Assembly (NCBI GenBank): GCA_016930175.1
Contig: JAFGHJ010000006.1
Location: 68,086-132,085 of the forward strand
Length of the DNA: 64,000 nucleotides
Direction: 5' to 3'
From: a candidate division WOR-3 bacterium
GTDB lineage: Bacteria > Hydrothermota > UBA3072
Part shown: positions 37,607-62,640 of the stretch, one piece after another
How positions within the stretch are numbered: the first letter of the stretch is position 1
How the letters are laid out: every line of letters starts with the position of its first letter
The notes under the pieces: generated by a model
What the model was told of the DNA's origin: nothing
Databases searched by the model: none
Seen by the model: only the letters and a program-made list of their open reading frames with translations
Translations under genes and position numbers: made by a program

Positions 37607-37772
37607 TATTCCTCCCTTTTTAACATTATATATAATTATATAATTATGTAGTAGTTATTGTATACATTGTGGATAAGTGGATAACTAAAAAGCTTCATTT
37701 ATTCTTTTATTCTCAGTTGAGAATTTTGCATTTTGTGTGTGGATAAATTGTTTATAAATCATTTCTATTAAA
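37607..37772. other. Probable oriC segment: three co-oriented DnaA boxes and an AT-rich tract in the dnaA-dnaN intergenic region
   Basis: TGTGGATAA (reverse complement of TTATCCACA) at 37668-37676, aGTGGATAA at 37676-37684 and TGTGGATAA at 37738-37746. An AT-rich TATATATAATTATATAATTATG tract at about 37628-37650 could serve as a DNA-unwinding element. Confidence 0.55.
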
Positions 37773-46454: not shown

Positions 46455-47180
46455 ATGTTGGAGCTTTCAGTAGACAAAAAAGTATTTATAGTCTCAGACA
46501 CTCATTTTCAGGATTGGTCGGATGAAGAAGAAGTTGAAACTTTTCTTTTGTTCCTTGAAAAAGTTATTAAAGAAGGGGATGAATTGTTTTTACTTGGAGA
46601 CATTTTTGATTTTTATTTTGAATATAAATCATATATTCCTAAGAGTTTTTTTAAAATATTTTTTGATTTGAAAAGAGCTGTTAAGGAAGGCGTTAATATT
46701 CATTACTGGATAGGCAATCATGATTTCTGGATAGGTGATTTTATAGGGGGACTCGGAATTGTTAAGCACCTTGGTCCTGAGGTCGTTAAGCTTGGAGGGA
46801 AAAGGATTTTAGTGCAGCATGGAGATGAAATAGATGGTAATTTTATGGTAAAGAAATTTTTATCCAACAGATTTTCAAGAGCACTCTTTTACTTAATTCA
46901 TCCTGAAGTGGGTATGCAAATGGCGAAAGCTGTTTCAAGGTTTTCTCAAGCGAATTCAAGAGGTTTGGAAGTTAGTGGAGAAGCCTTTGAAAAGTTTGCA
47001 AAAGAGAAATTTAGAGAAGGATTTGACGCAGTCATAATGGGTCATTTTCATAAGTCTTATTTGTACCAAGAAAATGGAAAAACACTTGCCATTTTTGGGG
47101 ACTGGAAGCGGTGTCGTTCTTACGGGGTAATTTCAAACGGCAACATATTTTTTAAGCTATTCAACCAATCTCCCAAATGA
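46455..47180 (+). CDS. LpxH-like calcineurin-type metallophosphoesterase (UDP-2,3-diacylglucosamine hydrolase family)
   Basis: Metallophosphatase motifs DTHF, GDIFD, GNHD, GHFH at LpxH-typical spacing. 241 aa. Confidence 0.5.
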   Translation: MLELSVDKKVFIVSDTHFQDWSDEEEVETFLLFLEKVIKEGDELFLLGDIFDFYFEYKSYIPKSFFKIFFDLKRAVKEGVNIHYWIGNHDFWIGDFIGGLGIVKHLGPEVVKLGGKRILVQHGDEIDGNFMVKKFLSNRFSRALFYLIHPEVGMQMAKAVSRFSQANSRGLEVSGEAFEKFAKEKFREGFDAVIMGHFHKSYLYQENGKTLAIFGDWKRCRSYGVISNGNIFFKLFNQSPK

Positions 47181-47839
47181 TAAAGTCCGTATTTAAAAGT
47201 AATCTGTAGTATTTCTTTTTTGTCTTTTTTGTTCATTGTTTTCCACACTTGAAATCTTCCTTTTTTAAGAGATTCTATCGATTCTTTTAAAGGCGTAAAA
47301 AAAAGAGACTCTTTGGATGCGCATTTTTTACATTTTGTACCGCCTCCTTCTATATCGAAATAATCTAATTCTTTTGATCCGCATGTTATGCATTTATCCA
47401 TTTGGGGTGGAATTCCCTGAAGTTTAAAAAGGGAGAAAAAAAAATAAATTAAGACTTCCTCCTTAAAACCTTTATCAAGGAAACCAAGAGATCTTTTTTC
47501 CAGACCAAAAAGACCATCCATTGGGGAGGGAATTTTCCTTCCTATCCAAATTAAGCTCCAGCCTATATTTAATCTATATAAATCTTTTTTTAATAATTGA
47601 TGCCCGTTTTTAATATTTGCTTCTTTTAGTGTTCCTAAACTCTTACCCGGTTTTATATAGTATACGAGCTGAGCCAGATTTAACGGTTCTATGTTGCCTG
47701 AAAATTGGGACTTTGTTCGCCTGGCTCCTTTTGCAACAAGAGAAAGACGCTGGGAATCTGAAGATAGAATGTGAATTATTTTGCTTGTGTTGCGAAAATC
47801 GTAGCTCTTGAGGATTATTGCATCCTTTCTTATTAACAT
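47120..47839 (-). CDS. recO: DNA repair protein RecO
   Basis: 239 aa. An N-terminal OB fold (DAIILKSYDFRNTSKII) and a C-terminal zinc finger (CITCGS...CKKCAS). Confidence 0.8.
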   Translation of the reverse strand: MLIRKDAIILKSYDFRNTSKIIHILSSDSQRLSLVAKGARRTKSQFSGNIEPLNLAQLVYYIKPGKSLGTLKEANIKNGHQLLKKDLYRLNIGWSLIWIGRKIPSPMDGLFGLEKRSLGFLDKGFKEEVLIYFFFSLFKLQGIPPQMDKCITCGSKELDYFDIEGGGTKCKKCASKESLFFTPLKESIESLKKGRFQVWKTMNKKDKKEILQITFKYGLYHLGDWLNSLKNMLPFEITP

Positions 47840-47846
47840 GTATCCC

Positions 47847-48866
47847 TTAGCATATGCGAGGAAGCTGATCTCCTACAAGGCGATCAACAATTCTTTCCCC
47901 TCCGACGATTGTTTCAAGAACGACTTTCCCCTTATTTTCTTTAGTGATTTCTCCTATTATGGAGGCTTCTTTTCCTAAGGCGTGTTTTTTCATCTTCGAA
48001 AGAATAAACGCGGCTTTGTCTTTATTTGTCACGGCTATAACTTTACCTTCGTTTGCGACATAGAGAGGATCGAGACCGAGAATTTCCGAGAAAGAGTATA
48101 CGTTTTCGTGAATTGGGAGTTTTCTTTCGTCGATTTTAATGCCGAACCCGGAAATTTCTGCAATTTCACATAAAACAGTTGCGACTCCGCCTCTTGTAGG
48201 GTCTCTCATGAATTTTATTCCACCTACGATTAGCATACTTTCTATTAATTCCCATAAAGGAGCGCAATCACTTTTTATATTTGTTTTAAAATTCTCCCTT
48301 TTGCTCATAACGGCTAAGCCGTGAGACCCGATTTCTCCATTTATAATAATTTTGTCTCCGGGTTTTATCTTTTTTTTGGAAAGGGTTAGCCCTTTTTGTA
48401 GAATGCCGACGCCTGAAGTATTTATAAATGCTTTATCGGCACTTCCTTTCTCTACGACTTTTGTGTCTCCAGTAACGATTTGTACCCTGGCGCTCCTGGC
48501 GGCCTTTGCCATAGAAGTTGTGATTTTATCCAGAATTTCCCAATCTAGACCTTCTTCTAAGATAAAAGAACACGAGATATAGAGGGGTTTTGCGCCCATT
48601 ACCGAGAGATCGTTCACTGTGCCGTTTACAGCTAAAGTTCCTATATCTCCGCCCGGGAAAAAGAGAGGATTTACGACGTAAGAATCCGTTGTGAAGCATA
48701 AGTTTTTTTCTCCTGTAGACTTTAATACGGCAGAATCGGTTAGTAGCCTTAGAATTGGATTGTCGAATTTATCGAGCATTAGTTCTTTTATCAGGGAACT
48801 CATCGCTATACCGCCGCTTCCGTGAGAGAGCAAAATTTTTCTATTTTTTATTTCTGTCTTTTTCAT
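47847..48866 (-). CDS. hypE: Hydrogenase maturation carbamoyl dehydratase
   Basis: 339 aa of the PurM-like fold. The C-terminus ends in the conserved ...PRIC motif. Confidence 0.9.
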   Translation of the reverse strand: MKKTEIKNRKILLSHGSGGIAMSSLIKELMLDKFDNPILRLLTDSAVLKSTGEKNLCFTTDSYVVNPLFFPGGDIGTLAVNGTVNDLSVMGAKPLYISCSFILEEGLDWEILDKITTSMAKAARSARVQIVTGDTKVVEKGSADKAFINTSGVGILQKGLTLSKKKIKPGDKIIINGEIGSHGLAVMSKRENFKTNIKSDCAPLWELIESMLIVGGIKFMRDPTRGGVATVLCEIAEISGFGIKIDERKLPIHENVYSFSEILGLDPLYVANEGKVIAVTNKDKAAFILSKMKKHALGKEASIIGEITKENKGKVVLETIVGGERIVDRLVGDQLPRIC

Positions 48867-49960
48867 TGTTTTTTAAATTTGTAATAAGCGGCACAGGTAC
48901 CTTCCGAGGAGACCATACAGGGACCGATGGGACTTTCCGGAGTGCAGATTTTTGAAAATAATGTGCATTCAAAAGGCTTTTTTGTGCCACACAGCACTTG
49001 TCCGCAGATACATTGTGGGTGGGTTTTTGTTTTTTCTACTTTTACATTTATTTTCTTCTCTGCATCGAATTCCGAGTAAGCCTTTTTTATGTATAAACCT
49101 GATTTTGGTAGAAGGCCAAGTCCTCTCCAGGGGGAATCTTTGATATCGAAAACTTTATTCATTAGAGAAAGGGCTTTTTTGTTACCTTCTCTGCGAACCA
49201 CTCTCTTATATTGATTTTCTACTTTGCTCTTATCTTTTTCTACGATTTGTCTAACAAGCATTTCGATTCCTTCTAAAAGGTCTATCGGCTCGAAGCCAAT
49301 TATAACGGAAGGAATGCCGTATTTATCTACTATTGGCTGGTAGGGAGTTTCTCCGATGATGGCACTTACATGCCCGGGACAGATAAACCCGTCTATTTTT
49401 ATCTCTCCGCTTTCCAACAGGCTCTGCATTGCAGGTGGAATTAGTTTGTGTCCGGAAAGAACAAAGAAATTTTTTAATTTTTCCTCATTTGCCCTCAGGA
49501 TTGTTGAGGCAACTAAAGGAGCGGTGGTCTCAAAACCGACGCCGAGAAAAACGACTTTTTTACCGGGATTTTTTCGCGCGATTTCGAGACTTTCAAGAGG
49601 GGAATAAACTATTTTTACTTTTGCCCCATTTGCCTTTTCTTTTTCCAAAGAGGAAGATGACCCCGGGACTTTAATCATATCTCCGAAAGTTGTTATTATT
49701 ACCTCGGGAAGGCGGCTGTAAGCGATAGCCGTATCTATATATTCATTTGGGGTTACGCATACCGGGCATCCCGGTCCCGAAAGATGTTCTATTTTGTCTG
49801 AAAGAAGGCTCATAATGCCTGAATGAAAAATTGAATGCGTGTGTGTTCCGCAAACTTCCATCAAAGAAATTTTTCCTTTATAGTCTTTTAAATAGTCATT
49901 TGTTTTATCGGCTATTTTTTTGGATAAGTTCTTATTCCTGTATTCGGTTATATATTTCAT
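48863..49960 (-). CDS. hypD: Hydrogenase maturation factor
   Basis: 365 aa. The CGxH (EVCGTHTHS) and GPGCPVC motifs are present. Confidence 0.9.
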   Translation of the reverse strand: MKYITEYRNKNLSKKIADKTNDYLKDYKGKISLMEVCGTHTHSIFHSGIMSLLSDKIEHLSGPGCPVCVTPNEYIDTAIAYSRLPEVIITTFGDMIKVPGSSSSLEKEKANGAKVKIVYSPLESLEIARKNPGKKVVFLGVGFETTAPLVASTILRANEEKLKNFFVLSGHKLIPPAMQSLLESGEIKIDGFICPGHVSAIIGETPYQPIVDKYGIPSVIIGFEPIDLLEGIEMLVRQIVEKDKSKVENQYKRVVRREGNKKALSLMNKVFDIKDSPWRGLGLLPKSGLYIKKAYSEFDAEKKINVKVEKTKTHPQCICGQVLCGTKKPFECTLFSKICTPESPIGPCMVSSEGTCAAYYKFKKQ

Positions 49961-50181
49961 TGTTTTTGTATTTCTGCGATTTCTTCCCAGACGGCAAGCG
50001 TCTTTTTTGCTTCTTCTTCGTTTAGTTTTTCTATGGCGAAACCGGCATGTATTATAAGATAGTCCCCTATCTCGACTTCCTTTAGAAGGTCCAAGCTTAT
50101 TTCTTTTTTTACTCCTGAAAGCTCGACTATGCCTTTACTTCCTTCTATTTTTACGAGCTTCATTGGTATCGCGAGACACAT
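49957..50181 (-). CDS. hypC: Hydrogenase maturation factor
   Basis: 74 aa. N-terminal MCLAIP (essential Cys2). Overlaps the hypD start. Confidence 0.85.
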   Translation of the reverse strand: MCLAIPMKLVKIEGSKGIVELSGVKKEISLDLLKEVEIGDYLIIHAGFAIEKLNEEEAKKTLAVWEEIAEIQKQ

Positions 50182-50224
50182 TGTTTTTTCCCTTTTGAAC
50201 TTAAGTTAACTTTTATTATTTGAA

Positions 50225-50540
50225 AATCAACCCACCCCACACCATTTTTTTGCCACAGAGCGCACAGAGGAAAAACAAACACACAGAGAAAAGAAAAAAA
50301 AGAAGTTGTGTTGTGTAAAGCCCACCACACAGCCCCAAATTAATCTCACACAGAGGACACTAAGTACACAAAGTTTTTCTTTGTTTTTTCTTGAGCCCTT
50401 GAAACCTCGAAACCTTAATTAAACAACAGAGGCAACAGAGAAAAAAGGAAATTGTATTATTTAAAATCCTGCACTCCCCACCTTATTAATCTTACACAGA
50501 GACACGGAGAACACGGAGCCGCCCCGCACAACAAAATTAA
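50225..50540 (-). repeat. Two minus-oriented members of the CTCTGTG / A-run / G-rich composite repeat family, at the trailer end of the CRISPR array
   Basis: On the + strand: cccaccccacaccatttttttgccacagagcgcacagaggaaaaacaaacacacagagaaaag at 50239-50300 and ctccccacc...cacagagacacggagaacacggag at 50487-50520. These are reverse complements of CTCTGTG..CTCTGTGG + A-run + GGGG..GGG, as seen at 41420 and 62590. Confidence 0.45.
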
Positions 50541-50772
50541 TATTATTATTAAAACCCTCAACTCATCCCAGAATCAGAAACAACAAATCACACGAATAAC
50601 ACGAATCAAAATTTTGTTTTTCCCTACTTTCCATGAAGTTTATAAGAGGGGGAAAAAACAGAGAACTTCGCCTCACCGTCATAAATTGTTCACGGATTTT
50701 TTATTGTTTTCTTTAACTCGAAACTATAAAAAAGGAACTCAAAACAAGATCTTTTTTGCTTTTTCTATACAA

Positions 50773-53504
50773 GATTCAATTCCTCATAGGTAGGATTGGA
50801 AGAGGATATGTAGAAGCTGACGCCGAGATCGCAGTCAAATTTCAATTCCTCATAGGTAGGATTGGAAGATATGGACTTTTATCGAACCAGACACGCTTGA
50901 TACGCATTTCAATTCCTCATAGGTAGGATTGGAAGTGTACGTTCCATGTAACAAGCGATAAGATATGATTTATTTCAATTCCTCATAGGTAGGATTGGAA
51001 GCGGGAAATAGAGCGTCATAATTTCTTCATAAACTTCATTTCAATTCCTCATAGGTAGGATTGGAAGATTCCCTACGCCACCTCCACCAATAAAATCTTT
51101 TAGATTTCAATTCCTCATAGGTAGGATTGGAAGCCGAACCCAAAAGAAAGAATCCTCTTGTTTTATATATTTCAATTCCTCATAGGTAGGATTGGAAGAC
51201 GGAATTAGATCTAATACGTTTGAAACAAAAATCATTTCAATTCCTCATAGGTAGGATTGGAAGTACCATTACCTAAAGTTATTGATTCTTTTATGTATGA
51301 ATTTCAATTCCTCATAGGTAGGATTGGAAGGAACCATCGGATTACCGTGTCCGGTTCCGGTCTTGTCTGATTTCAATTCCTCATAGGTAGGATTGGAAGT
51401 AAACAACCCCAAGAAGCCGCAGCCGAGCTTGCCCTGATTTCAATTCCTCATAGGTAGGATTGGAAGTTAAAGGATTGTCTCCCGCCACAACAGAATTACT
51501 CCATTTCAATTCCTCATAGGTAGGATTGGAAGTCAGGGTCGGTAGGGTCAAGGACAACCGCATAAACTCATTTCAATTCCTCATAGGTAGGATTGGAAGG
51601 TAAGGATCCATATCAAAACGCCAAAACTTATTAGGATTTCAATTCCTCATAGGTAGGATTGGAAGAAGACTTGATTCCGAACTTGCTATCATATTTATAT
51701 TTCAATTCCTCATAGGTAGGATTGGAAGATCAAATTTTTTCATTCTACCCCCTCGTCTTGGGATATTTCAATTCCTCATAGGTAGGATTGGAAGTTAGAC
51801 AAACTGGAGTCCCTATGAGCGTGTGTGAGATTTCAATTCCTCATAGGTAGGATTGGAAGTAATCATTCATATAGGAATGGTCGGAAGTAATAGAATTTCA
51901 ATTCCTCATAGGTAGGATTGGAAGCTTTTTTATTTTCTTGGCTACATTCATAAGCAATTTATTTCAATTCCTCATAGGTAGGATTGGAAGATAAAGTATA
52001 TCCGTACCCCAATCGGCACTACAAATATTTCAATTCCTCATAGGTAGGATTGGAAGAATTCCATGCACCGAGTTTACGCACCCAAAATGTATATTTCAAT
52101 TCCTCATAGGTAGGATTGGAAGGGAAGTTGTACTATATACCAGACACGCTTGATACGCATTTCAATTCCTCATAGGTAGGATTGGAAGCAATTCTCGCAA
52201 TCTTCGCAAGATGGTACTATCAAAATTTCAATTCCTCATAGGTAGGATTGGAAGGCTTTCATGCTTTCGCTATCCAACAGGGAAGCATCATTTCAATTCC
52301 TCATAGGTAGGATTGGAAGAAACTTATCCAAGCCGCTTTCGCCGCCGCTATTATCATTTCAATTCCTCATAGGTAGGATTGGAAGGGAACGATAGGAGAA
52401 CAAAATGAACCCGAATAATTGATTTCAATTCCTCATAGGTAGGATTGGAAGGCGGTGTAGTCCCTAAACTCTATTATTATGACAGATTTCAATTCCTCAT
52501 AGGTAGGATTGGAAGTATGTTTAATCCCGGTTTATATAATCCAAACAATAAGGATTTCAATTCCTCATAGGTAGGATTGGAAGGCGTAGACGATGTAGGT
52601 ATCTCCTTCAGTAGTAATGTATTTCAATTCCTCATAGGTAGGATTGGAAGCGTATGGATAACCCCATATTGTACCCGGAGCGTTGTTAGATTTCAATTCC
52701 TCATAGGTAGGATTGGAAGACGCTTATAATACAAACTCCACAAATATTTCTAAAATTTCAATTCCTCATAGGTAGGATTGGAAGATCGAAAAAGAACGGA
52801 AAACTTACAAAATGCGCGATTTCAATTCCTCATAGGTAGGATTGGAAGATAGTTCTGCGGGTCATATTCCGGTTGCTTACGATATTTCAATTCCTCATAG
52901 GTAGGATTGGAAGACAGTTAGGGGAATTCAAACACAGAAACGGAATATCATTTCAATTCCTCATAGGTAGGATTGGAAGGACTTAGCTCTCGCAACTTCT
53001 ATATGGCAATTCGAGCATTTCAATTCCTCATAGGTAGGATTGGAAGTGCCAAAGCAACGAATATGGCTGTTGAGGATGTTCATTTCAATTCCTCATAGGT
53101 AGGATTGGAAGAAGAGTCAGGTGTAAACCGACAAACTGTGTATCAAATTTCAATTCCTCATAGGTAGGATTGGAAGGCTGTTAGAGAATCAATACCGGTA
53201 TTTGCTTTTAGATTTCAATTCCTCATAGGTAGGATTGGAAGCAAACAGGTACACGAACAAGCCATACTGTTGCATCATTTCAATTCCTCATAGGTAGGAT
53301 TGGAAGGTACCACTTATCGCCTCTTTTCCGTATGCTTCCCATATTTCAATTCCTCATAGGTAGGATTGGAAGCAATAACACCTGTTTTTTTACGAGTGAT
53401 TCTTATTGCATTTCAATTCCTCATAGGTAGGATTGGAAGTGAAGAAGTCACAAACTCCCATTGTCCCTTGCTCCATTTCAATTCCTCATAGGTAGGATTG
53501 GAAG
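50773..53504 (-). CRISPR. CRISPR array with 42 repeats of 30 bp and 41 spacers of 33-39 bp. Consensus on the + strand is ATTTCAATTCCTCATAGGTAGGATTGGAAG.
   Basis: I counted the repeats directly, first at 50773 and last at 53475, with a period of about 66 bp. The first repeat is degenerate (GATTCAATTCC...), which marks the leader-distal end. That places the leader next to cas2, so transcription is on the minus strand: CTTCCAATCCTACCTATGAGGAATTGAAAT, ending in an ATTGAAAT-type handle typical of type I-B. Confidence 0.95.
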
Positions 53505-53667
53505 TCGTCGAGTATAGCTGTTTTAAGGGGTTCCTTTTTTGTCTTTTTATACAACTATACATAATAATATTGTAAGATTTTTTAAAGATTTTGTCAATAG
53601 TGAGTTTAGTGAGATTTTGTATGTTCGTCGGTTCTCTGATTTTTTTACGTTATTATAGGTCGACGAA
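53505..53667 (-). promoter_or_regulatory. CRISPR leader
   Basis: A 163-bp AT-rich non-coding segment between the cas2 stop and the first full-consensus repeat. The repeats adjacent to it are perfect, while the distal repeat is degenerate. Confidence 0.55.
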
Positions 53668-53931
53668 TTAAATAAATGAGGATATTTCACTTTTTTCTTT
53701 TCCCATTATTTCTTTATTCAAATATTTTGTGGTTCTCATCTTATAAAAAACAACCGAATCTTTATCTTTTTCTATAATTTCTTTCAAGTCAGCCTTTAAT
53801 TCTTCCAATTTAGCTTTTGTTATCTCTCCTTCAAATACCGAATTCTGTATCCAGTTAAGATATTTTCGGCAGGTTTTTAATACCTTTGCGACTCTGTCTT
53901 CTTCTATATCATACACGAGAATTAAATACAT
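53668..53931 (-). CDS. cas2: CRISPR-associated endoribonuclease Cas2
   Basis: MYLILVYDIEEDRVAKVLKTCRKYLNWIQNSVFEGEIT is the canonical Cas2 N-terminus. The start is at the internal Met; the listed ORF is extended to 54009 and would overlap cas1. Confidence 0.9.
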   Translation of the reverse strand: MYLILVYDIEEDRVAKVLKTCRKYLNWIQNSVFEGEITKAKLEELKADLKEIIEKDKDSVVFYKMRTTKYLNKEIMGKEKSEISSFI

Positions 53932-53938
53932 GGTTTCG

Positions 53939-54934
53939 TCACCATCTTGCCACCCACGGGCTATATTTTTTATCGCCAAGAAGGTGTTTTTCAATTTTAT
54001 ACGCTTCAAGACGTATTAATCTTCGGTATGAGACATTGCGTTTTAAATCGGGATGCTTTATGGTCTGTTCCATCCTATTGTCAAATTCCCTGAGATATGT
54101 TTCCCTTCCTTTATCGCTAAGGTAAGTTCCTTTCATCTTTGAATCAAAGTCGTCTTTGTTTATCATTTTCTTATTTATTAATGTGAATATTATTCTGTCT
54201 GCTATTATTGGTTTAAATATTTCCGCCAAATCCAGATTTAAAGAAAAGTTTCTGAAATTAGTAGAATGTAAAAATCCGATTCTCGGGTCGAGATGGGTTT
54301 TGTAAATTTCGCTTAAAGTCGCGATATAAATCAGAGAATTACCGAAACTTATTAAAGCATTAAGTCTATTTCTCGGCGGTTGTTTTGAACGCCTATCAAA
54401 GGAAAAATCTTCATTGTTCAGTATCGCGTCGAATGCCCCGTAATAAATATCACGACAGTTGCCTTCCATCCCCATAAGTTCCTGGATGTTGTTAACCTTA
54501 TAAATATTTTCTTTTATGTTTTCAATATTTTCAATCCTTTGTTTAAGATCAGAACCCCTGTTATTGTAATATCCGAGTACTTTCATAATATTTTCAATCG
54601 CGCCCTCGACAAATTTTCTCGCGATTTCAAGTCTTTTTTCTTTATCCTGATAAAAAGTCGCCTGCGCCAATATAGTGCATCCGGAATTGTTGTGTTCTCT
54701 CGGATAAAACGTTCCCGAATAATATCCGTAATAGTTGAAAAAGTGTAGTAAAATTCCCTGTTGAGAAATAAAATCGAGGAGTTTTTTATTGATGGAAATT
54801 TCTCCGAATATGAGTATCTCCTGTGTGTTTTCTACGGGGACATATTTCCTTTTGCCGTCTTCAGTTTCGAAATACAGGGTGTTTTGTCTTCTATGTAAAG
54901 TTCCGTTTGAAGTTACATATAAACTTTTCATCAA
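53939..54934 (-). CDS. cas1: CRISPR-associated integrase Cas1
   Basis: 331 aa. LYVTSNGTLHRRQNTLYFE at the N-terminus and a C-terminal alpha-helical catalytic domain, matching Cas1 of type I-B/I-A/III-associated loci. Confidence 0.95.
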   Translation of the reverse strand: MMKSLYVTSNGTLHRRQNTLYFETEDGKRKYVPVENTQEILIFGEISINKKLLDFISQQGILLHFFNYYGYYSGTFYPREHNNSGCTILAQATFYQDKEKRLEIARKFVEGAIENIMKVLGYYNNRGSDLKQRIENIENIKENIYKVNNIQELMGMEGNCRDIYYGAFDAILNNEDFSFDRRSKQPPRNRLNALISFGNSLIYIATLSEIYKTHLDPRIGFLHSTNFRNFSLNLDLAEIFKPIIADRIIFTLINKKMINKDDFDSKMKGTYLSDKGRETYLREFDNRMEQTIKHPDLKRNVSYRRLIRLEAYKIEKHLLGDKKYSPWVARW

Positions 54935-54940
54935 TTTCTC

Positions 54941-55453
54941 CTATGTGAAACAGAATTCAAAATATGCGCATTTTCTGCAAAATTTTGACCTTTTTAATTC
55001 CGGAGGAGTATCGAGTAAAATCAGTTCTTCGGTTTCGTTCACTAATTTTTTTATTTCTTCTTCTAATTCCGCATCGAGTTCTACGGTCTCTCTTTTTCTT
55101 TCTTTTGGCAAAAGCAATCTTCCTTTCGCTTCAAGCCCCATTTCTTTTAATCTGTAGAGATAATATGCTATCTGCATTATTGCCGCTTTTTTCCCGGCGG
55201 ATGATTTTTTGATTTCACATATCATCGGACTTCCTTCTGATTCTTCGATTAAATCGATTTTCATATTATCTATCGTTATAGATTTCTTTTGTCTCTTATA
55301 AGAAGTTTCATCTATGGTTCTTCCTATCGAAACATTTGAATAATCCTGTTCTGGATTTATACTTCTGCTCTGAAACCACGCTTTTCGTTTGCAAATGCAA
55401 TAGGCATTTATGAGGGAGGGGGTGATGTTGGATATCTGGTTATTCTGATGCAT
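54941..55453 (-). CDS. cas4: CRISPR-associated exonuclease Cas4
   Basis: 170 aa with the RecB-like nuclease core. The N-terminal Cys (YCICKRKAWF) and C-terminal CRKCAYFEFC form the Fe-S cluster pattern (DUF83). Confidence 0.85.
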   Translation of the reverse strand: MHQNNQISNITPSLINAYCICKRKAWFQSRSINPEQDYSNVSIGRTIDETSYKRQKKSITIDNMKIDLIEESEGSPMICEIKKSSAGKKAAIMQIAYYLYRLKEMGLEAKGRLLLPKERKRETVELDAELEEEIKKLVNETEELILLDTPPELKRSKFCRKCAYFEFCFT

Positions 55454-55570
55454 TTTTTTGAAATGGAAGGTTTTCTGATGCCCTATGGTTAGATAATCTT
55501 ATGGTCAAGAAACAGCCTTTCGGTGCGAAACTAGAATACATTTATAAGCTTTTCTGTGATATATATGTCT

Positions 55571-56263
55571 TCATGTTTGACTTATCTTTGAAAGTAAAGT
55601 AAAGTTTCTGTTTGCTGTTTCAATCTTGAAAGGTAGAAGATAGTACCGTTCTTTCCTTTTTGTTTTTGTTCGGTTATAAGTATTTACATTGTCAAAGCTG
55701 AGAGTTTCGTCAAAATCATCCATTATAGTAATCAATCCCGGGACAAGATTAGTAATTTTGTCATCAAGAAGTCTTGAATATTCTTTCCCTATATTTACAC
55801 TTTCTATAAATTTAATAAACTGAAAGAAGCATCCTTTCTTGCCGAAATAGTTTATCCGCGGAAACCACTGCTTCAAAAAATCTTTTGTTTTTTTGTTTTG
55901 AATCGTAACAGCGGTTTTCATATCCCCAGCAAGGTACACATATTCCCTGAATCCTACCGTGGGCTGAAAATTTATCTCTGGATGTTTTTTCTTTGTTTCT
56001 GAATGAGGCTCTTTTTGTATCTTCAAAAAACAGTTGTTCACTACTAATTTTTCTGGAAGAGAAAACCGTATATCTAAAGCTCTGATTAAGCTAAATTTAC
56101 CCATTGCTAATTGGAGTGAGTCATAAGTGATAATTGCATTTAGTAGCGCCATTTTTACCGCATACGGTGAAGGTGTGAGGAGGGTCTTGGCCCCAGAACT
56201 TGTGGCTTGACTCTGCTTCAGGGAGAAAAGAGTAGTTGGTCTAAAAACAGTTTCTAACCACAT
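55571..56263 (-). CDS. cas5: Cas5 (DevS/Cas5t-like) Cascade subunit
   Basis: 230 aa. The N-terminal FRPTTLFSLKQSQATSSGAKTLLTPSPYAVKMALLNA fits the Cas5 glycine-rich/RAMP N-terminal signature. It sits between cas7 and cas4. Confidence 0.6.
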   Translation of the reverse strand: MWLETVFRPTTLFSLKQSQATSSGAKTLLTPSPYAVKMALLNAIITYDSLQLAMGKFSLIRALDIRFSLPEKLVVNNCFLKIQKEPHSETKKKHPEINFQPTVGFREYVYLAGDMKTAVTIQNKKTKDFLKQWFPRINYFGKKGCFFQFIKFIESVNIGKEYSRLLDDKITNLVPGLITIMDDFDETLSFDNVNTYNRTKTKRKERYYLLPFKIETANRNFTLLSKISQT

Positions 56264-56276
56264 AAGTATACCTTCT

Positions 56277-57242
56277 TCATAACTTCAATGGTTCTGTGCT
56301 ATTTATAATAACTTGAAGTTTTTCAGCGAATTCTTTTGGGGAGAGAAAATTTTCAATGGTTATACTATCTTTTGCAATCTTATTAAGGTTTGCAGATATT
56401 TCTGTTATTTCCTCATTGTAGTTATCATTTAATGCGCTTATAGTTGGGGCAGGAATAGAATTCGACGAATAAGAAATCACTCCCTCAAAATTTACTATAT
56501 GGGGATTTTGTGTGTTTCTCATTGCTCCCGTAGGCTTTAGAAAAGTATAAAGAATGGATTTGAGCAATGCTTCATACCGTGATTGCCTTTCGTTATCATT
56601 AATGGCATAAGTTTTTGATATATCGTTGTATCCTATACGGCAGGTGTCAAAGTTAGAAACCAAAGCGTATATGCCCGAATTTGCAGGACGATGAAAAATA
56701 TTTTGTCCTATGTTTGCTCCTTCTTCTCCCTCACCAGTTTCTTTCCCTGCATTTGGGACAAGCTTAACATGGAAAAAATTCTCTGTTTTGCTTGCTTCTG
56801 GTAATGCAATAAGCCAACCAAACTCCGCTATAGATTTTCTGGGAAGATTTTTGTTGTTATTGGTTATAAGAATTCCTTCCATATCGTCAATAACACAGGT
56901 CTTTAATAAAAGTTCCATTACTTTCTCATCAGGATCTTCTTTTTTGAATGCTTTCGTAAATTTCTCGTCCCCGGTTATTCTGTTGGCATTGAAAACTTTA
57001 CAGGAATTGCAAAGTTTAAGTCTTGTTTCTTTGGCTACATTATATAGATGTTGTGCCTGAATGTGTTTTAACATATCTCCACTTACAGCATTCACTGTAA
57101 CTGGCTTTCCTTCTTTATCAATGATTGTCACCTGTCTGGTCAAAATTTGATTTCCTTCTCCCCCCTCATTATTAAGGGAATGCATATTAAGGGTAATTCT
57201 TCCGCTGATAGATAGAGAACTTATTCTTTTTTTATCTGCCAT
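56277..57242 (-). CDS. cas7: Cas7 (Cst2/DevR family) Cascade backbone subunit
   Basis: 321 aa. The N-terminus SGRITLNMHSLNNEGGEGN is the DevR/Cst2-type Cas7 signature. Confidence 0.75.
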   Translation of the reverse strand: MADKKRISSLSISGRITLNMHSLNNEGGEGNQILTRQVTIIDKEGKPVTVNAVSGDMLKHIQAQHLYNVAKETRLKLCNSCKVFNANRITGDEKFTKAFKKEDPDEKVMELLLKTCVIDDMEGILITNNNKNLPRKSIAEFGWLIALPEASKTENFFHVKLVPNAGKETGEGEEGANIGQNIFHRPANSGIYALVSNFDTCRIGYNDISKTYAINDNERQSRYEALLKSILYTFLKPTGAMRNTQNPHIVNFEGVISYSSNSIPAPTISALNDNYNEEITEISANLNKIAKDSITIENFLSPKEFAEKLQVIINSTEPLKL

Positions 57243-57261
57243 CTTAACCTCCTTTAGTGAG

Positions 57262-59043
57262 TTATTTGATTTTACTATTTTTTGTAATCTCTTCTTTTCT
57301 TTCTAAGGCATAGCCATAAGCAGTAAGAAGTTTTCCAACAACTGATGGACCATATTTATCTATAAGCTCGATAATATCCTTCATGTCTTCTGTCTTTACC
57401 GTTGCTCTGACTTTGCCAGAAGTGAAATCTTGAGGATGCTTTTCTACATACCTTGCTGTCTCAGCATTGTAAAGAGCAATAAATTCAGAGAGATATTCAA
57501 CGAGGTCTCTTTTGTATGGTGATTTTCTCTTCAAGTTTTGTGCTACTCCATAATGTACATCAAATCTTTTATCTCCTTTTACTTTTGCATACTGGGCGCC
57601 TATTGTTGAATTTCTTATTGCCTTTGCTATATTCTGAAATCCCTGTGATTCCAAAATAGGTTTGAACCTTTCTTCAGTCATAAAGACCTCCCTTAGGTTT
57701 TTAACTGTGAAAGTCTTAAGATACATTTTTCTTTTGTCTGTTTTTTTTCTATCTATGTCTTCTGTTAACAGAGAAGCATAATCAAAATTGAATTCAAAGA
57801 ACTCGTCCCAATTACCAGCGGAAAGAAATTGGCGGTAATGTTGCAACAACGAAGTAGTAGAGCTGTTTTCTTCTTTGATTTGTTTCATTATCTCTAAATG
57901 GTTGTTAAGAATTTTGATCCATTTTTTACCTTCTTCATAAGAACCTATTTCGATGAATTTCGGCAGTTTTAGATAACCAATATTAGCGATAGATTTATTT
58001 TGTCCCATGTTTTTTTGATAGGCGGTCTTGAACCCTTGAACAAGATTTTGAGGATTTAAACGTTTTGAAAATGATGGCCGCATATTTTGATATTCAGGTA
58101 AAAATTCGATTAGATTTTTTGTATAATAAAGAATTGCTATAATATCCATTTTAAATGGCTTATTCCCTACGACAAGAGGTTTGAAATTTTTATAGATAGT
58201 AGAAAGTCTCGTATACTCTATATTAAAAGGTTCAATAACGTAATATTTGGTATCCCAATCTTTATTACTTACTTTTATATCTTTTATTACCATACTATTA
58301 TAAATTCCTATTATCTTAAGGTATTCTTTAATCCAGAAAGAAGAAATATTACTTAGAGCAATAGAATTTGATTTAGGAAAATTCACCCCTTTTCCTTGAT
58401 GTGGATTGAATATTTGAAGAGCAGTAATTTTGTCAAAATTTAGATTATATTGTTTTGATAAATTTTTTAAATCTTCTTTCACATTTTCTTCATTATTCAA
58501 TGGCAAACTATAAAGAAGTAATATTTCTTTTAATATAAGATGGTACTGTTTTCTGTTCTTGTATACATTATTTAGAATTTTATGGTAACCTGTAATGTTC
58601 TTGGGATCACGAATTTTTGAGAAAATATCAAAATCGGGATGTGGTTTTTCAAGTTCCGCAAGCAATCTTGCTTGTTTGTTTTTATCTCTTTCTTTATGAT
58701 AAATTTCATCACGTCTTTTTTTGAATATATCTCTCTTTTCTTTTTCGTTTTCATAATAAATTATTTGTCCGGAGAGATCTCTATTTTTGTCCGTTTTTAT
58801 CTTTATATAAGGAAAAACAAAGTAATTAGTGTTTTTTACCATCTTTTCGGTTATATTAATGTTAGATGATACGCTATAATAAGCACCTTCATCCTTTATC
58901 TTTATATTTACGTTATCAATTTTGTTATTATCAAATATATGAGATAAGATTTTTGCTAAACCATAAGTTTCAAGTGTTTCTGAATAAGTCCCTGAATCTT
59001 TCGTAACAAAATATTTATTTTGATACATCTTTGTCCTCCGCAT
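57262..59043 (-). CDS. cas8: Large Cascade subunit Cas8 (Cas8b/Cmx8/DevT-like). Assigned by position and size only.
   Basis: 593 aa and AT-rich, sitting between cas3 and cas7, which is where the large subunit sits in Dev/Myxan-type I-B loci. I recognise no diagnostic motif by eye. Confidence 0.5.
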   Translation of the reverse strand: MRRTKMYQNKYFVTKDSGTYSETLETYGLAKILSHIFDNNKIDNVNIKIKDEGAYYSVSSNINITEKMVKNTNYFVFPYIKIKTDKNRDLSGQIIYYENEKEKRDIFKKRRDEIYHKERDKNKQARLLAELEKPHPDFDIFSKIRDPKNITGYHKILNNVYKNRKQYHLILKEILLLYSLPLNNEENVKEDLKNLSKQYNLNFDKITALQIFNPHQGKGVNFPKSNSIALSNISSFWIKEYLKIIGIYNSMVIKDIKVSNKDWDTKYYVIEPFNIEYTRLSTIYKNFKPLVVGNKPFKMDIIAILYYTKNLIEFLPEYQNMRPSFSKRLNPQNLVQGFKTAYQKNMGQNKSIANIGYLKLPKFIEIGSYEEGKKWIKILNNHLEIMKQIKEENSSTTSLLQHYRQFLSAGNWDEFFEFNFDYASLLTEDIDRKKTDKRKMYLKTFTVKNLREVFMTEERFKPILESQGFQNIAKAIRNSTIGAQYAKVKGDKRFDVHYGVAQNLKRKSPYKRDLVEYLSEFIALYNAETARYVEKHPQDFTSGKVRATVKTEDMKDIIELIDKYGPSVVGKLLTAYGYALERKEEITKNSKIK

Positions 59044-61456
59044 TTATAGATTGTTGGTCGCATAATCTTAATATTCTTACCAAAACAAAATATAAAAATG
59101 TTTCATCGGGCTTACCGAAGTTCACTGTATACTGGTTTAAATCTTCTTCATTATCCCATTTTCTAATCACCTCATTGTTTTTATCAAATTTGTAGAATGA
59201 AGATGCGTAATTTCTTATCATTTCTAAAACCAAATTAATCCCCTCTCTTTCAATCTGATAAGAATTGACCCAGTGAGAAGTCGCTGAATGGTGTTTTATT
59301 ATTGCAGAAGTAAGTGCCCTTGCTATAGTTTCGAATTCTTCATCGTCTTCCAAAATATCTTCCAAAATAGCAAAGGCTGCTATTGCTCCAATTCCTGCAT
59401 GTGGTGGTAGTTTTTTGGGCAATTTATCTTTGATAGAGTCAAAATCAGTATGTGCGAGTAGTTCTTCTCTGTTGTAATTTCCCTTTGCTTTCTGAAAATC
59501 GCCGGCAATTTTTTGCCATTTCTTGTTTAACTTCCCATAGTCGTGCATTATTAGCATAAATTTAATCATTTCGTCAATTGGGGTCGTGAAATTATGTTTA
59601 TGCCACAATTTAGAGAGAGGATAATGAATTTCATCTCTGAAATTGGTTTCATAAATCTTTATCATACTACTAATATGGTTTTCATAGGTTTCCTTTTTGT
59701 ATCCGAATAATTCTTTTTTCTCTGTTTCTTGAAGACTTGATTCTATAGTTTTGCTTTTCAAAAGAAAGTTCATCCCAATTTTACTGTTGTAATTAACGTA
59801 TTTAGGATTGAGGACAATCCTGGGATAAATCTTTATATCTTCTATAGAAATTTGACTCATTTTAAATCTAGCTATTTCGAAATCAGTAAAAATGTTGTTT
59901 TCTTCTATCAATGAAACAAAGGGCTCCACTTCTTCCTCGTCTACTAGTTCTTCAGTCCTTCTAAGTCTATTTATTAGGGTGTAAGGATTTATGGAAATAG
60001 CATCATAATTATACATAGGATAAAGGGGGCTTGTTTTTCTTAAGAAGATGACACTTGTGGAATTAATATCTCTTATCAAGTCTCGTCCAGTTCCTTTATC
60101 GCTTTCTTCCCAAGCTTTTTGTATGCGTCCAAAGTCAAAGCTTTTTGCATTTTCTATTTCTTTAATCTCTTTTTTGGTGAGAATTGTATTCACTATTCTT
60201 TCACCAGTGGCATAATTTATCGATTTCTCGTTTGCTAATTCTTTCATTGTGGCTATGCAGAGATTCTCTTCATATGGCAAATATGACTTATTTTTGTTTT
60301 CATTTTCTTGTACATTATAGACAAATATTCTTCCTTTTTCATTTTCAAATCTAGCACACCTCCCCGCTCTTTGTAAAAAGGAATTAATGGGAGAGATTTC
60401 TGTAAGCAACGTATCGCAGCTAATATCCAATCCTACTTCGATAACCTGAGTGGAAATAAGTATTGCTTCTCTGTCAAGGTTAGCTTTCTTCCCGAAGATA
60501 TTAAGGATTTTTTTCTCCTTGGCTGTTCGGTCTTTTTTCAAAAACCTCGAATGAATACAAATGAGTTCAAATTTACTTTTCTGCTCAAGTTCAAGATATA
60601 ATTTCTGTGCTTTCTCTACAGTATTACAAATAACTATAGTTTTCTTTTTATGCTCTTTTTGTATGTCAGTGGCCTCTAAATGCTTTTTTCTGACAACAAG
60701 TTCTTTTTCGTTTTTGAGTTGCGGTATAGAAATAAATTCATTTTCATCAAGAGTAACCGAATTACTCCCTAAAAATCTGTTGATTTCTCGAATAGTATTA
60801 TCGGAGATTGTAGCAGTCATAATACAAAAACGTGATAATTCTTTTAATTTTTTGAGAATATTCAAGGATGTTGTTAATGACCTTGTAGGGTCAAGAAGGT
60901 GAAATTCATCAAATATCAGATAGGAACCAATAATAGCACCTGCGTTTATATTGGCTTGTCTTTTTGACAAAGAATATGGAAAGCCAAGTATAGAACTTAA
61001 GGTTTGGTCAATAGTAGTGAAGATTATATCTGATTCAAAATATTTGTCGTTTGGCAATTCACCCGTTTGTAAAGAAACTCTTAATCCTGTTTCTTTAATT
61101 TTGCTATTACATGAGATCTCATTATAAAGACTGTTTGCCAATGTCCGAAGAGGCAAGGAGTAAATAATTTTTTTGGGAGAAGGGGTTCCCTCTTTATTAG
61201 CAAAAACAAAAGGAAGAATAGAAGCCCAAGTTTTCCCTGCGCCAGTTGGAGCTTTCAACAGAACGTTATTCATTTGTAAGTAGTTCTCAAATAATCTTTT
61301 CTGAAAATCGTATGGTTTAAAATTTGTAGTCTTTTCGAAGAAAGAAATATAACTATCTATATATTCCTGCATTAACAAATGGATTCCCACTAAAATTAAG
61401 AAATGACTTTTTCTCACCGTGGGAATTCCCCATAAACCTCCTTCTCTACTTACCAA
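59015..61456 (-). CDS. cas3: Cas3 helicase-nuclease with the helicase N-terminal and the HD domain C-terminal
   Basis: SF2 helicase motifs: motif I APTGAGKT, motif II LIFDEFH and motif VI QRAGRCAR, all in the first ~400 aa. HD nuclease motifs (LIMHDYGK, LLAHTD, PPHAGIGA, IIKHHSA) lie in the last ~200 aa. The exact start is uncertain because the RBS-associated ATG is out of frame. Confidence 0.85.
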   Translation of the reverse strand: MVSREGGLWGIPTVRKSHFLILVGIHLLMQEYIDSYISFFEKTTNFKPYDFQKRLFENYLQMNNVLLKAPTGAGKTWASILPFVFANKEGTPSPKKIIYSLPLRTLANSLYNEISCNSKIKETGLRVSLQTGELPNDKYFESDIIFTTIDQTLSSILGFPYSLSKRQANINAGAIIGSYLIFDEFHLLDPTRSLTTSLNILKKLKELSRFCIMTATISDNTIREINRFLGSNSVTLDENEFISIPQLKNEKELVVRKKHLEATDIQKEHKKKTIVICNTVEKAQKLYLELEQKSKFELICIHSRFLKKDRTAKEKKILNIFGKKANLDREAILISTQVIEVGLDISCDTLLTEISPINSFLQRAGRCARFENEKGRIFVYNVQENENKNKSYLPYEENLCIATMKELANEKSINYATGERIVNTILTKKEIKEIENAKSFDFGRIQKAWEESDKGTGRDLIRDINSTSVIFLRKTSPLYPMYNYDAISINPYTLINRLRRTEELVDEEEVEPFVSLIEENNIFTDFEIARFKMSQISIEDIKIYPRIVLNPKYVNYNSKIGMNFLLKSKTIESSLQETEKKELFGYKKETYENHISSMIKIYETNFRDEIHYPLSKLWHKHNFTTPIDEMIKFMLIMHDYGKLNKKWQKIAGDFQKAKGNYNREELLAHTDFDSIKDKLPKKLPPHAGIGAIAAFAILEDILEDDEEFETIARALTSAIIKHHSATSHWVNSYQIEREGINLVLEMIRNYASSFYKFDKNNEVIRKWDNEEDLNQYTVNFGKPDETFLYFVLVRILRLCDQQSINAEDKDVSK

Positions 61457-61480
61457 TCATTATTTGCAATTTCCGATTCA

Positions 61481-62263
61481 CTATTTACCATTAACTACCT
61501 CAAACATCCCAAACCCCTGGGGGTTTTTGGAGCCTATTCCCGCGTCCCAGGCGAGTTTTAGCATTTCCGGATGACTTTTGATTTTATATACTCCAAGCCA
61601 TCCTTTGATAACATATTTATCTTTATAATAAGTAATTTGTTCGCTCCTTTTACTCAATTTTTCGGGAATTATTTTAAGTTCGGAATCCGGCGGTTCATTT
61701 TTATATAATGCCCTGTACTTTCTTTTGATGTTTTCACCTACTAATTCGGGAAATTCTGATTCACGGGGGTGAAAATAATATGTTTTTTTCTTTCCGTTTC
61801 TGTCTTCTAAGGTTCTGTAAACGGTAACGGGCGAAATCATTTTTATAAGTATTTCTTCTTCAAAAACGGGAGTGATACTTATTTCGATGGAGTTTATATA
61901 TATCTGGTTTTCACCAAGCCTTATTTCCGGGTTTTTTAAAAGTTCAGTTGCATACGATTCGAGAAATTCGCTTTCGGGTGATGAAACCCATAGGTCGAAA
62001 TTATCTTTGAAGATTAAACTTTTGCTTTCGCTGTTGTAATTGCATTTTCCTTGAAGCCTCGAAAAAGTGAACATTTTAAAAGACCTTTTCCCATCTGTAT
62101 ATCCTTTATTGTGTAGAAAATCCGATAACTTATCTGAAATGTTGTTATATATGAAAGATTGAACGAGATAATTATAATTTACAGGAATTTTAAAAACACT
62201 ATTTAACGGCGAAAATTGTATCTTTATCCGCATATAACTATAGTAACTGTTTTTAATTGGCAT
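61481..62263 (-). CDS. cas6: Cas6 crRNA endoribonuclease
   Basis: 260 aa with a duplicated RRM/ferredoxin fold. The C-terminal glycine-rich loop GIGSKNPQGFGMFEV is the Cas6 signature. It is the first gene of the operon. Confidence 0.85.
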   Translation of the reverse strand: MPIKNSYYSYMRIKIQFSPLNSVFKIPVNYNYLVQSFIYNNISDKLSDFLHNKGYTDGKRSFKMFTFSRLQGKCNYNSESKSLIFKDNFDLWVSSPESEFLESYATELLKNPEIRLGENQIYINSIEISITPVFEEEILIKMISPVTVYRTLEDRNGKKKTYYFHPRESEFPELVGENIKRKYRALYKNEPPDSELKIIPEKLSKRSEQITYYKDKYVIKGWLGVYKIKSHPEMLKLAWDAGIGSKNPQGFGMFEVVNGK

Positions 62264-62299: not shown

Positions 62300-62640
62300 C
62301 AGTGTTAATCAGTGGCTAATTTCTTGGGTATGGGGATGGAGAAACAAACAAAAAATCTCTGTGCGTTCTTGACAGGAGAGAAAAAAGACCACATAATATA
62401 AACGTACTTAGTTTTTTTGTAATACCCCCGAGCGGGAGCGTGTCGCTCCCGTTTGGTTTTTATTAACATCGTTAATAAAGAAGTTAGTAGTTGGTAGTTA
62501 GAAGTTAGAATAAAAAATCAGTGTGTATCAGTGTAAATCCGTGGCTAATTTAAGGGGATGGGGTTGGGTTTTAAACAACAAAAAAACTCTGTGTACTCTG
62601 CGTTTTTCGTTTCTTTCTCTGTGTTCTCTGTGGTTAAGTT
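62300..62640 (+). repeat. Plus-oriented members of the composite repeat family: G-rich tract, A-run, then CTCTGTG repeats. They lie upstream of cas6.
   Basis: gggtatggggatggag-aaacaaacaaaaaa-tctctgtgcg at 62318-62365. ggggatggggttggg-ttttaaacaacaaaaaaa-ctctgtgtactctgcg...ctctgtgttctctgtgg at 62552-62635. gtggctaattt occurs at both 62302 and 62541. Confidence 0.45.
62404..62461 (+). ncRNA. Candidate small RNA, about 58 nt, divergent from the cas operon
   Basis: TTGACA at 62369-62374, a 17-nt spacer, CATAAT at 62392-62397. A GC hairpin CGGGAGCG-TGT-CGCTCCCG at 62433-62451 is followed by TTTGGTTTTT. There is no ATG or ORF in the transcript. Confidence 0.3.

Follow-up and report, generated by a model that had tools for sequence, protein, structure and literature searches.

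The stretch analysed here (the window) comprises 64,000 nucleotides of contig JAFGHJ010000006.1 from a candidate division WOR-3 bacterium and carries a CRISPR-Cas locus (short palindromic repeats, clustered and regularly interspaced, with their associated genes). The genes cas6, cas3, cas8, cas7, cas5, cas4, cas1 and cas2 are followed by a leader and a repeat array, the whole set lying on the minus strand (Table 1). The open reading frames (ORFs) and the repeat count bear out the gene order, the strand and the number of spacers given in an earlier note on this DNA. All eight Cas ORFs are intact and each is recognised by profiles (Pfam, NCBIfam and/or PADLOC). The signature of type I is present, namely a Cas3 helicase-nuclease together with Cas5, Cas7 and Cas8 genes beside an array of 42 repeats. 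The locus very probably encodes a complete type I CRISPR-Cas immune system that targets DNA and is best filed as I-B in the broad current sense. The earlier proposal of a complete, I-B-like system is thus upheld by the profile searches, in which Cas1 passes the I-B model TIGR03641. Within the locus, the adaptation module (Cas1, Cas2 and Cas4), Cas6 and the repeat are of I-B type, whereas Cas8, Cas7, Cas5 and Cas3 are closest to type I-A.

Table 1. Features of the CRISPR-Cas locus and of its surroundings, in window coordinates
Feature	Position	Strand	Remarks
cas6	61481..62263	minus	predicted endoribonuclease
cas3	59015..61372	minus	785 amino acids from ATG 61372; alternative TTG 61456
cas8	57262..59028	minus	588 amino acids from ATG 59028, GGAGG before ATG
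putative internal cas11	57262..57681	minus	139 amino acids from M455 of cas8; GGGAGG Shine-Dalgarno at 57687-57692
cas7	56277..57242	minus	DevR/Csa2 family
cas5	55571..56263	minus	230 amino acids
cas4	54941..55453	minus	stand-alone ORF, unfused to cas1
cas1	53939..54934	minus	I-B type
cas2	53668..53931	minus	87 amino acids from ATG 53931; mechanical ORF reaches TTG 54009
leader	53505..53667	minus	163 bp between cas2 and first repeat
CRISPR array	50773..53504	minus	42 repeats of 30 nt, 41 spacers
degenerate terminal repeat	50773..50802	minus	leader-distal, first on plus strand; 2 mismatches
hypC/D/E	47847-50181		adjoin array
recO	47120-47839
dnaA	37773-39116
dnaN	36527-37606

Adaptation genes, array and interference genes

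Cas1 scores 468.6 bits against TIGR03641 (cut-off 304.1); against the MYXAN model TIGR03983 it reaches only 167.6 of the 358 bits required. Cas4 matches PF01930 (E 8e-55), TIGR00372 (98.5 bits, cut-off 65) and PADLOC Cas4b, while Cas2 matches PF09827 (E 8e-25) and aligns to PADLOC Cas2b over positions 1-87 of 87, starting at ORF residue 27. Cas6 is recognised by TIGR01877 (154.6 bits), PF01881, PF21350 and PADLOC Cas6b (E 1.8e-79), its NCBIfam and Pfam matches being to generic Cas6 models only. The best PADLOC scores of Cas6, Cas4, Cas1 and Cas2 all fall on 'b' profiles.

The repeat reads ATTTCAATTCCTCATAGGTAGGATTGGAAG on the plus strand and CTTCCAATCCTACCTATGAGGAATTGAAAT on the minus strand. 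Forty-one of its 42 copies are perfect, as stated in the earlier note, which had taken this uniformity as consistent with an active array; to us, too, it points to activity. In shuffled sequence, zero copies are expected. The only degenerate copy, whose 3' end is ...GAATC instead of the ...GAAAT found elsewhere, lies farthest from cas2, in agreement with the previously proposed polarity and with the leader beside cas2. Orientation of the array is based on the 3' ATTGAAAT end of the repeat, the leader position, the 5' side of the protospacer adjacent motif (PAM; see below) and the strand and order shared with related loci. The leader contains a promoter-like, sigma-70-like element, TTGACA-17-TACAAT, at 53597-53569 (consensus match only). 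The combination of a stand-alone Cas6 with a 30-nt repeat ending in ATTGAAAY is a I-B trait, and repeats with this ending are typical of I-A and I-B. The Rfam family CRISPR-DR2 matches the repeat below threshold (30.7 bits against 37). The 41 spacers are 33-39 nt long, 36 nt being the commonest length. Two of them, sp21 (52123-52158) and sp40 (50869-50905), have their first, PAM-proximal 20 nt in common and then diverge completely, which suggests two acquisitions from mosaic relatives at one PAM site. A similarity of neighbouring spacer pairs at 53082-53375, reported by Tandem Repeats Finder, was dropped, as spacer-versus-spacer BLAST confirmed sp21/sp40 only.

In Cas3, the helicase (~60221-61351) is followed by the HD nuclease (~59183-59677), an order which is the reverse of that in most I-B, I-C and I-E Cas3 proteins. 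The helicase reaches 187.5 bits against TIGR01587 (cut-off 102.45) at residues 65-408, and the HD domain matches TIGR01596 marginally at residues 594-758 (41.3 bits, cut-off 43.45). By sequence, the nearest solved relative of the helicase is Cas3' of the Pyrococcus furiosus I-A system (E 1.4e-25). The top solved matches of the HD domain are weak, led by the stand-alone Cas3'' 3S4L (E 0.005), with the P. furiosus I-A Cas3-HD behind it (E 0.04). PADLOC Cas3b profiles align to this Cas3 only from profile position ~190-220 onward, and the N-terminal part of Cas3b is therefore without a counterpart here. The Deinococcus homologue aligns nearly full length, HD motif included, and Cas3 of all related loci aligns over ~residues 10-775 of 785. 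The 3' end of cas3 overlaps the start of cas8 by 14 nt. Upstream, at 61355-61445 on the minus strand, an ORF of 26 codons begins with ATG 61433 behind a strong Shine-Dalgarno sequence, GAAGGAGG; it is out of frame with cas3 and ends just past the likely cas3 ATG, itself without a Shine-Dalgarno sequence. This short ORF could be a coupling upstream ORF, or else a quirk of annotation or assembly.

Cas7 matches PF01905 (244 bits) and TIGR01875 (110 bits, cut-off 67.3), and its nearest solved relative is Cas7a of the P. furiosus I-A complex (7r21_I, E 2.5e-7); the sequence search that recovered this protein did not recover the solved Myxan Cas7b. With 122.2 bits against 212.6, Cas7 stays below the cut-off of TIGR02583, the equivalog model of I-A Csa2. 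Cas5 is matched over its full length by the PADLOC profile 'Cas5a, CAS-I-A' (E 1.7e-69) and has 413 homologues, nearly all of them unnamed.

The large subunit and a putative internal Cas11

Fold comparison divides Cas8 (about 588-593 amino acids) into a Cas8a-like body and a Cas11-like C-terminal domain. The protein is matched nearly full length by the PADLOC profile 'Cas8a, CAS-I-A' (E 1.2e-66) and by none of the PADLOC 'Cas8b' profiles; its sequence identity to Cas8a is 12%. The same protein, at 100% identity, is recorded as a 'hypothetical protein' in a metagenome-assembled genome (MAG) of candidate division WOR-3. Among the solved structures of the PDB, this variant has no representative.

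The C-terminal 139 residues are predicted to adopt the Csa5/Cas11a fold, which begins at M455, and the GGGAGG upstream is spaced 5 nt from this codon. Just five GGAGG motifs occur in the 8.6-kb operon, three of which lie 5-7 nt before an ATG, namely those of cas8 (59028), of cas7 and of M455. Moreover, M455 is kept in 24 of 27 Cas8 homologues, and a Met is present at the Cas11 boundary in 13 of 14 related loci. It is accompanied by a Shine-Dalgarno-like motif in the Desulfurellaceae, Deinococcus, Clostridium and Ignavibacteria loci; the Bacteroidota loci have A/T-rich sequence upstream instead, and Bacteroidota make little use of Shine-Dalgarno motifs. Between cas6 and cas2 there is no extra ORF that would represent a separate cas11 or csa5. 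Collectively, the sequence and the predicted fold suggest that Cas11 may be made by internal translation from M455. Indeed, production of Cas11 by internal translation has been established in I-B, I-C and I-D systems (10.1101/2020.04.18.045682; PMC11899642; PMC11096372).

Spacer targets, related loci and genomic setting

Comparison of the spacers with databases, which had been proposed in the earlier note, gave matches in IMG/VR and in metagenomes (up to 35/37) and none in cultured-phage records. The 20 nt common to sp21 and sp40 led to UViG_3300031551_000003 in IMG/VR, an uncultivated virus (44.5 kb, 35% G+C), which past these 20 nt continues like sp40 and not like sp21. On the part of this contig compared first, sp40 matches at 29 of 37 positions (sp21, at the same site, at 22 of 36), sp27 at 30 of 36 and sp32 at 30 of 37, and the three protospacers lie within 3.5 kb of one another. 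All three have CCA immediately 5' on the crRNA-identical strand (crRNA, CRISPR RNA), and their 3' flanks share nothing. As the frequency of CCA in the viral contig is 0.016, the chance of the second and third flanks agreeing with the first is ~2.6e-4. The flanks thus support 5'-CCA as the candidate PAM, and its location on the 5' side of the protospacers is an independent confirmation of the minus-strand polarity of the array. A weak sp26 match (24/35) and an sp27 match in metagenome contig L029 (28/36, 5' end mismatched) were excluded from the PAM count. A further 18.5 kb of the viral contig (bases 12687-31188) yielded no added protospacers, and IMG/VR contains no exact match of 26 nt to the newest spacer, sp1. 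Compared with the remainder of the window, the spacers give chance-length matches only, without self-targeting.

A metagenome scan with the sp32 core returned 14 stretches on 13 contigs, 12 of which carry the target at 30-35 of 37 positions with the same flank. The 13th contig, Ga0307422_1056147 (L027, 1-1310), is another array with the identical 30-nt repeat and ~19 spacers; only one spacer is common to it and the window array, a version of sp32 with 36 nt instead of 37. That arrays of the same repeat hold different sets of spacers and yet converge on a single protospacer suggests ongoing acquisition in the population, which is no proof of activity in this genome. One repeat of the Ga0307422_1056147 array is a variant (…TATAAGGAATTGAAAC). 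In several metagenome contigs, the sp32 target with the ACGCACCA flank occurs twice, ~1.3 kb apart (L030 4910-6191; L031 5980-7352; L033 501-1774), and the targeted viral segment therefore appears duplicated. The spacer matches tie UViG_3300031551_000003 and the related metagenome contigs to a WOR-3 host.

At E<=1e-3, a Cas8 family profile collects 669 representative clusters (50% identity), of which 355 remain at E<=1e-30; among the matches listed, nearly all members are 550-630 amino acids long. The clade has members in WOR-3, Caldisericota, Ignavibacteria, Bacteroidota, Clostridia, Deinococcus and cyanobacteria. Cas8 of the window is 67% identical to that of a Desulfurellaceae MAG and 31-41% identical to those of the other related loci. 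Runella, Spirosoma, Terrimonas, Flammeovirga and Emticicia share the full order cas6-cas3-cas8-cas7-cas5-cas4-cas1-cas2; other Bacteroidota contigs have the same order over the part covered, and the Ignavibacteriaceae contigs, which start at cas3, are identical in order thereafter. In Clostridium thermosuccinogenes the gene set is the same, except that cas4-cas1-cas2 are displaced to a position upstream of cas6. The helicase-then-HD fusion in Cas3, the Cas8 length (550-630 amino acids) and the boundary Met are all kept in the related loci. Where contig DNA reaches far enough, their arrays follow cas2 on the same strand, with repeats of a 30-nt family, ...AATCG.ACC....GGAATTGAAAT/C. Distant relatives on plasmid P2 of Deinococcus gobiensis and on plasmid pANACY.01 of Anabaena cylindrica keep cas3-cas8-cas7-cas5 but differ in their adaptation modules (Cas1d in Anabaena) and in having 37-nt ...GGGGACTGAAAC repeats; RefSeq labels their Cas8 and Cas5 as 'hypothetical'. 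The variant as a whole is large and coherent, its annotation is poor, and the window locus is typical of it.

Some of these loci contain additional genes. In C. thermosuccinogenes (L001 13791-16566), cas5 is directly followed by a DUF6431 gene, a Mu-type transposase (rve, Mu-transpos_C) and a TniB-like ATPase, and the displaced cas4-cas1-cas2 lie behind another transposase. As cas3 is present, this looks like the insertion of a mobile element rather than a CRISPR-associated transposon. In two Ignavibacteriaceae contigs (L003 7138-7521; L004 6980-7402), a PF05635 gene, coding for a 23S rRNA intervening-sequence protein, stands between cas4 and cas1.

The neighbours and the distance of about 11 kb from the replication origin were correctly given in the earlier note: hypCDE adjoin the array, and dnaA, dnaN and the DnaA boxes are 11-13 kb away. 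Two perfect DnaA boxes (TTATCCACA), the sole ones in the 64 kb, and one box with one mismatch lie in the dnaA-dnaN spacer at 37668-37746, and the cumulative GC-skew has its minimum near 39 kb of the window; together, the boxes and the skew turn near dnaA place the array ~11-13 kb (11.4-13 kb) from the probable origin. At 36-40 kb, the G+C content is 29-33%. The cas operon, with 32.9% G+C, is indeed more AT-rich than the rest of the window (37.4%), as had been claimed, and every other 8.6-kb window is richer in G+C (minimum 33.5%). The horizontal acquisition that had been read from this is, however, poorly founded, because housekeeping genes are equally AT-rich (dnaN 28.7%, dnaA 32.7%, recO 33.8% G+C). 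No integrase, transposase or tRNA gene flanks the cas locus. The low G+C content is real but is little evidence for horizontal transfer.

Two non-coding stretches border the locus. Between hypC and the distal array end (50182-50772), 590 bp of A/C-rich non-coding sequence contain an imperfect direct repeat, whose copies (50295-50355 and 50441-50501; 74% identical) are spaced ~146 nt, together with ACACAGAG-like motifs that recur. Rfam has no match to this stretch, and decayed CRISPR repeats are not recognisable in it. At the other end, between a DUF456 gene and cas6, a strong G+C-rich hairpin of 13 bp with a T-run after it (62428-62456, plus strand) sits where the promoter of the cas operon would be expected. 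At gathering thresholds, Rfam has zero matches across the whole 64-kb window.

Classification and comparison with known systems

If the parts act as in other type I systems, the leader beside cas2 would drive minus-strand transcription of the array, and Cas6 would cleave each repeat, giving crRNAs with a presumed 8-nt 5' tag, AUUGAAAU. Cascade would assemble on the crRNA from Cas5, several Cas7, Cas8 and several copies of Cas11, the latter putatively made from the internal start at M455. The complex would read 5'-CCA as its probable PAM and form an R-loop, upon which Cas3, a helicase with a C-terminal HD nuclease, would degrade the target. New spacers would be inserted at the leader end by Cas1, Cas2 and Cas4. 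The locus is apparently a complete and working antiviral system, and we infer that it is active at present.

Several observations weigh against this reading. Neither Cas8 nor Cas5 has a Pfam or NCBIfam match (NCBIfam to E<=10). Against PDB sequences, Cas5 gives nothing significant, nor do the Cas8 sequence and the Cas8 family profile, the fold comparison alone being informative. The two assignments are thus based on one PADLOC profile each and on operon position, to which the predicted fold is added for Cas8. The internal Cas11 start is deduced from sequence and predicted fold, and an analogous internal site in Thermotoga Cas8b1 was found to be non-functional in E. coli (PMC13199841). As for the targets, the array has no match, even at E<=1, among the 50,697 records of a cultured-phage collection, the PAM is derived from three independent protospacers, a small sample, and no spacer match is perfect, metagenome contigs reaching 35/37 at best and the viral contig 30/37.

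The absence of perfect matches might also be taken as a sign that the locus is an inactive relic, whose genes and array persist without conferring immunity. We regard this as improbable, given that the eight ORFs are intact with conserved motifs, that 41 of 42 repeats are identical, that the sister array in another sample has almost wholly different spacers and that several spacers match one virus family with a consistent PAM. Much less still can be said for a relative of type I-G, to which the C-terminal HD domain of Cas3 might point. The top NCBIfam match of Cas3 is TIGR02621 (Cas3g), and PADLOC Cas3g is colinear with it over residues 35-671, but the TIGR02621 score of 192.7 bits (cut-off 400) covers the helicase half only. 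Moreover, the locus has a separate Cas6 and Cas5 and a DevR-type Cas7, there is no Csb1, Csb2 or Csx17-like gene among the profile matches, and Cas4 and Cas1 are unfused (NF049935 232.6 bits, cut-off 560). This gene content effectively refutes a I-G affiliation, for which we see next to no probability.

A Myxan/Dev-type system (MxI-B, Cas8b3), with Cas8, Cas7 and Cas5 being the counterparts of DevT, DevR and DevS and perhaps also acting as regulators, is highly improbable. The gene order is identical to that of MxI-B (PMC11237760), so that the Dev/Myxan arrangement recognised in the earlier note stands, and Cas7 belongs to the DevR family (PF01905, TIGR01875). Membership in the Myxan group is another matter. 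Cas4 and Cas1 are unfused, the MYXAN Cas1 model failed, the search with Cas7 found the I-A protein in place of the Myxan one, and the protospacers are flanked by CCA where Myxan-type PAMs have A (AYG, WTB) at -3. None of the subtype-specific NCBIfam models matches Cas8, Cas5 or Cas6, even at E<=10; the Cmx8/Csx13/DevT large subunit, the DevS-type Cas5 and the Cmx6-type Cas6 of Myxan systems are all missing. The DevR Pfam family itself also takes in I-A Cas7 (Csa2) and is therefore not Myxan-specific. The regulatory role of Dev proteins is a peculiarity of Myxococcus, and nothing in the analysis supports a Dev-like regulatory role for this locus.

That the locus is a bacterial type I-A system, in which Cas3 would belong stably to Cascade and be autoinhibited until R-loop formation activates it allosterically, is a more substantial possibility, although we consider it unlikely. 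It agrees with the full-length 'CAS-I-A' matches of the PADLOC Cas8a and Cas5a profiles, with the best solved relatives of Cas7, of the Cas3 helicase and of its HD domain, which are P. furiosus I-A Cas7a, Cas3' and Cas3'', and with the predicted fold of Cas8, whose body is most like Cas8a and whose C-terminal domain is most like Csa5/Cas11a. The helicase-then-HD order mirrors the I-A split into Cas3' helicase and Cas3'' HD, and the 14-nt overlap of cas3 and cas8 suggests coupled expression. CCN-type PAMs are typical of I-A, and the CCA flank was counted for this affiliation as well. By contrast, csa5/cas11 is missing as a separate gene and cas3 is unsplit, Cas7 reaches only 122 bits of the 212.6 demanded by the Csa2 model, and Cas1, Cas2, Cas4, Cas6 and the repeat family are of I-B type. 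The profile label also has to be read with care. CasFinder-style sets give I-A names (cas8a1a3, cas5a2) to Myxan-like Leptospira loci as well (PMC12567085), and the 'I-A' label is therefore partly historical. Furthermore, Cas8b is non-monophyletic and has been split into Cas8b1-15, with some variants closer to Cas8a or Cas8c, and current convention treats the Cas8a-like large subunits of such loci as Cas8b variants (PMC13199841). The earlier note had held that assignment of these subunits to I-A by profile searches would speak against a I-B system. Formally, PADLOC makes this assignment for Cas8 and Cas5; yet the locus stays within I-B, since Cas8b is not a monophyletic group.

Thus, of the features on which the classification turns, one I-A trait is present, the Cas8a large subunit (PADLOC), and three are missing, the separate csa5/cas11a gene, the division of Cas3 into cas3' and cas3'' and a Cas7 of the Csa2 equivalog. 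On the I-B side stand, besides Cas6 and the repeat, a Cas1 of the I-B family and the lack of a separate cas11 gene, with a predicted small-subunit-like domain in the 3' part of cas8. Because csa5 is missing and cas3 is unsplit, we file the system as I-B with a Cas8a-like subunit and not as I-A proper. That I-A and I-B traits can occur as a mosaic has already been recognised, in a general way, in the literature. It is conceivable, though doubtful, that the clade is an evolutionary intermediate between I-A and I-B, in which Cas8a and Csa5/Cas11a have come to lie in one gene, to be separated again by internal translation, and Cas3' and Cas3'' form one protein. In that event, Cas3 could be a resident, allosterically gated Cascade subunit combined with a I-B adaptation module; such residence of Cas3 in Cascade, as in I-A, is itself a tentative suggestion that we would sooner doubt than accept.

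The main value of the locus, filed as I-B, lies in annotation and classification, and the understanding of type I CRISPR-Cas is unchanged. As Cas8 and Cas5 are 'hypothetical' in public records, loci of this kind can be under-called or mis-subtyped. The window provides a concrete case of a Cas8a-like large subunit in a I-B framework, together with a candidate PAM (CCA) and a candidate Cas11 start, both of which any reconstitution or repurposing of the system would require.

Among known systems, those of the broad I-B group (Thermotoga maritima, Clostridium thermocellum I-B1) likewise have Cas6, Cas7, Cas5 and one large-subunit gene without a separate cas11. A probable internal Cas11 start, the I-B Cas1 (TIGR03641), separate cas4, cas1 and cas2 and a 30-nt ATTGAAAY repeat are further points of likeness. 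As in Cas8b1 systems, pyrimidines occupy positions -3 and -2, so that CCA fits the YYD consensus and, equally, the pyrimidine-pyrimidine rule of Cas8b1/2 (PMC13199841). The differences concern cas3, which lies between cas6 and cas8 here and after cas5 there, the HD domain, which is C-terminal here and N-terminal there, and the large subunit, which matches PADLOC 'Cas8a' and no 'Cas8b' profile. The archaeal P. furiosus I-A Cascade-Cas3 complex (PDB 7R2K, 7R21, 7TR6-7TRA) provides the closest solved relatives of four components. Unlike in P. furiosus, Cas8 and Cas11 are encoded by one gene here, as are Cas3' and Cas3'', the adaptation genes, Cas6 and the repeat are of I-B type, and the host is a bacterium. 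The MxI-B/dev locus of Myxococcus xanthus has the order cas6, cas3-cas8-cas7-cas5, cas4/cas1, cas2, with Cas4 and Cas1 fused (PMC11237760), and thus resembles the window locus in its gene order, which ends in adaptation genes and an array, and in its DevR-family Cas7. In the Myxan I-B Cascade of Synechocystis PCC 6714 (PDB 8IP0), Cas11 comes from within cas8 (PMC11096372), as it putatively does here. Myxan-type PAMs have A (or W) at -3, being AYG in Synechocystis (PMC11096372) and WTB in Myxococcus (PMC11237760; see also PMC13199841). From these Myxan systems, the WOR-3 locus is set apart by its separate cas4 and cas1, by a Cas1 of another family and by CCA in place of AYG or WTB.

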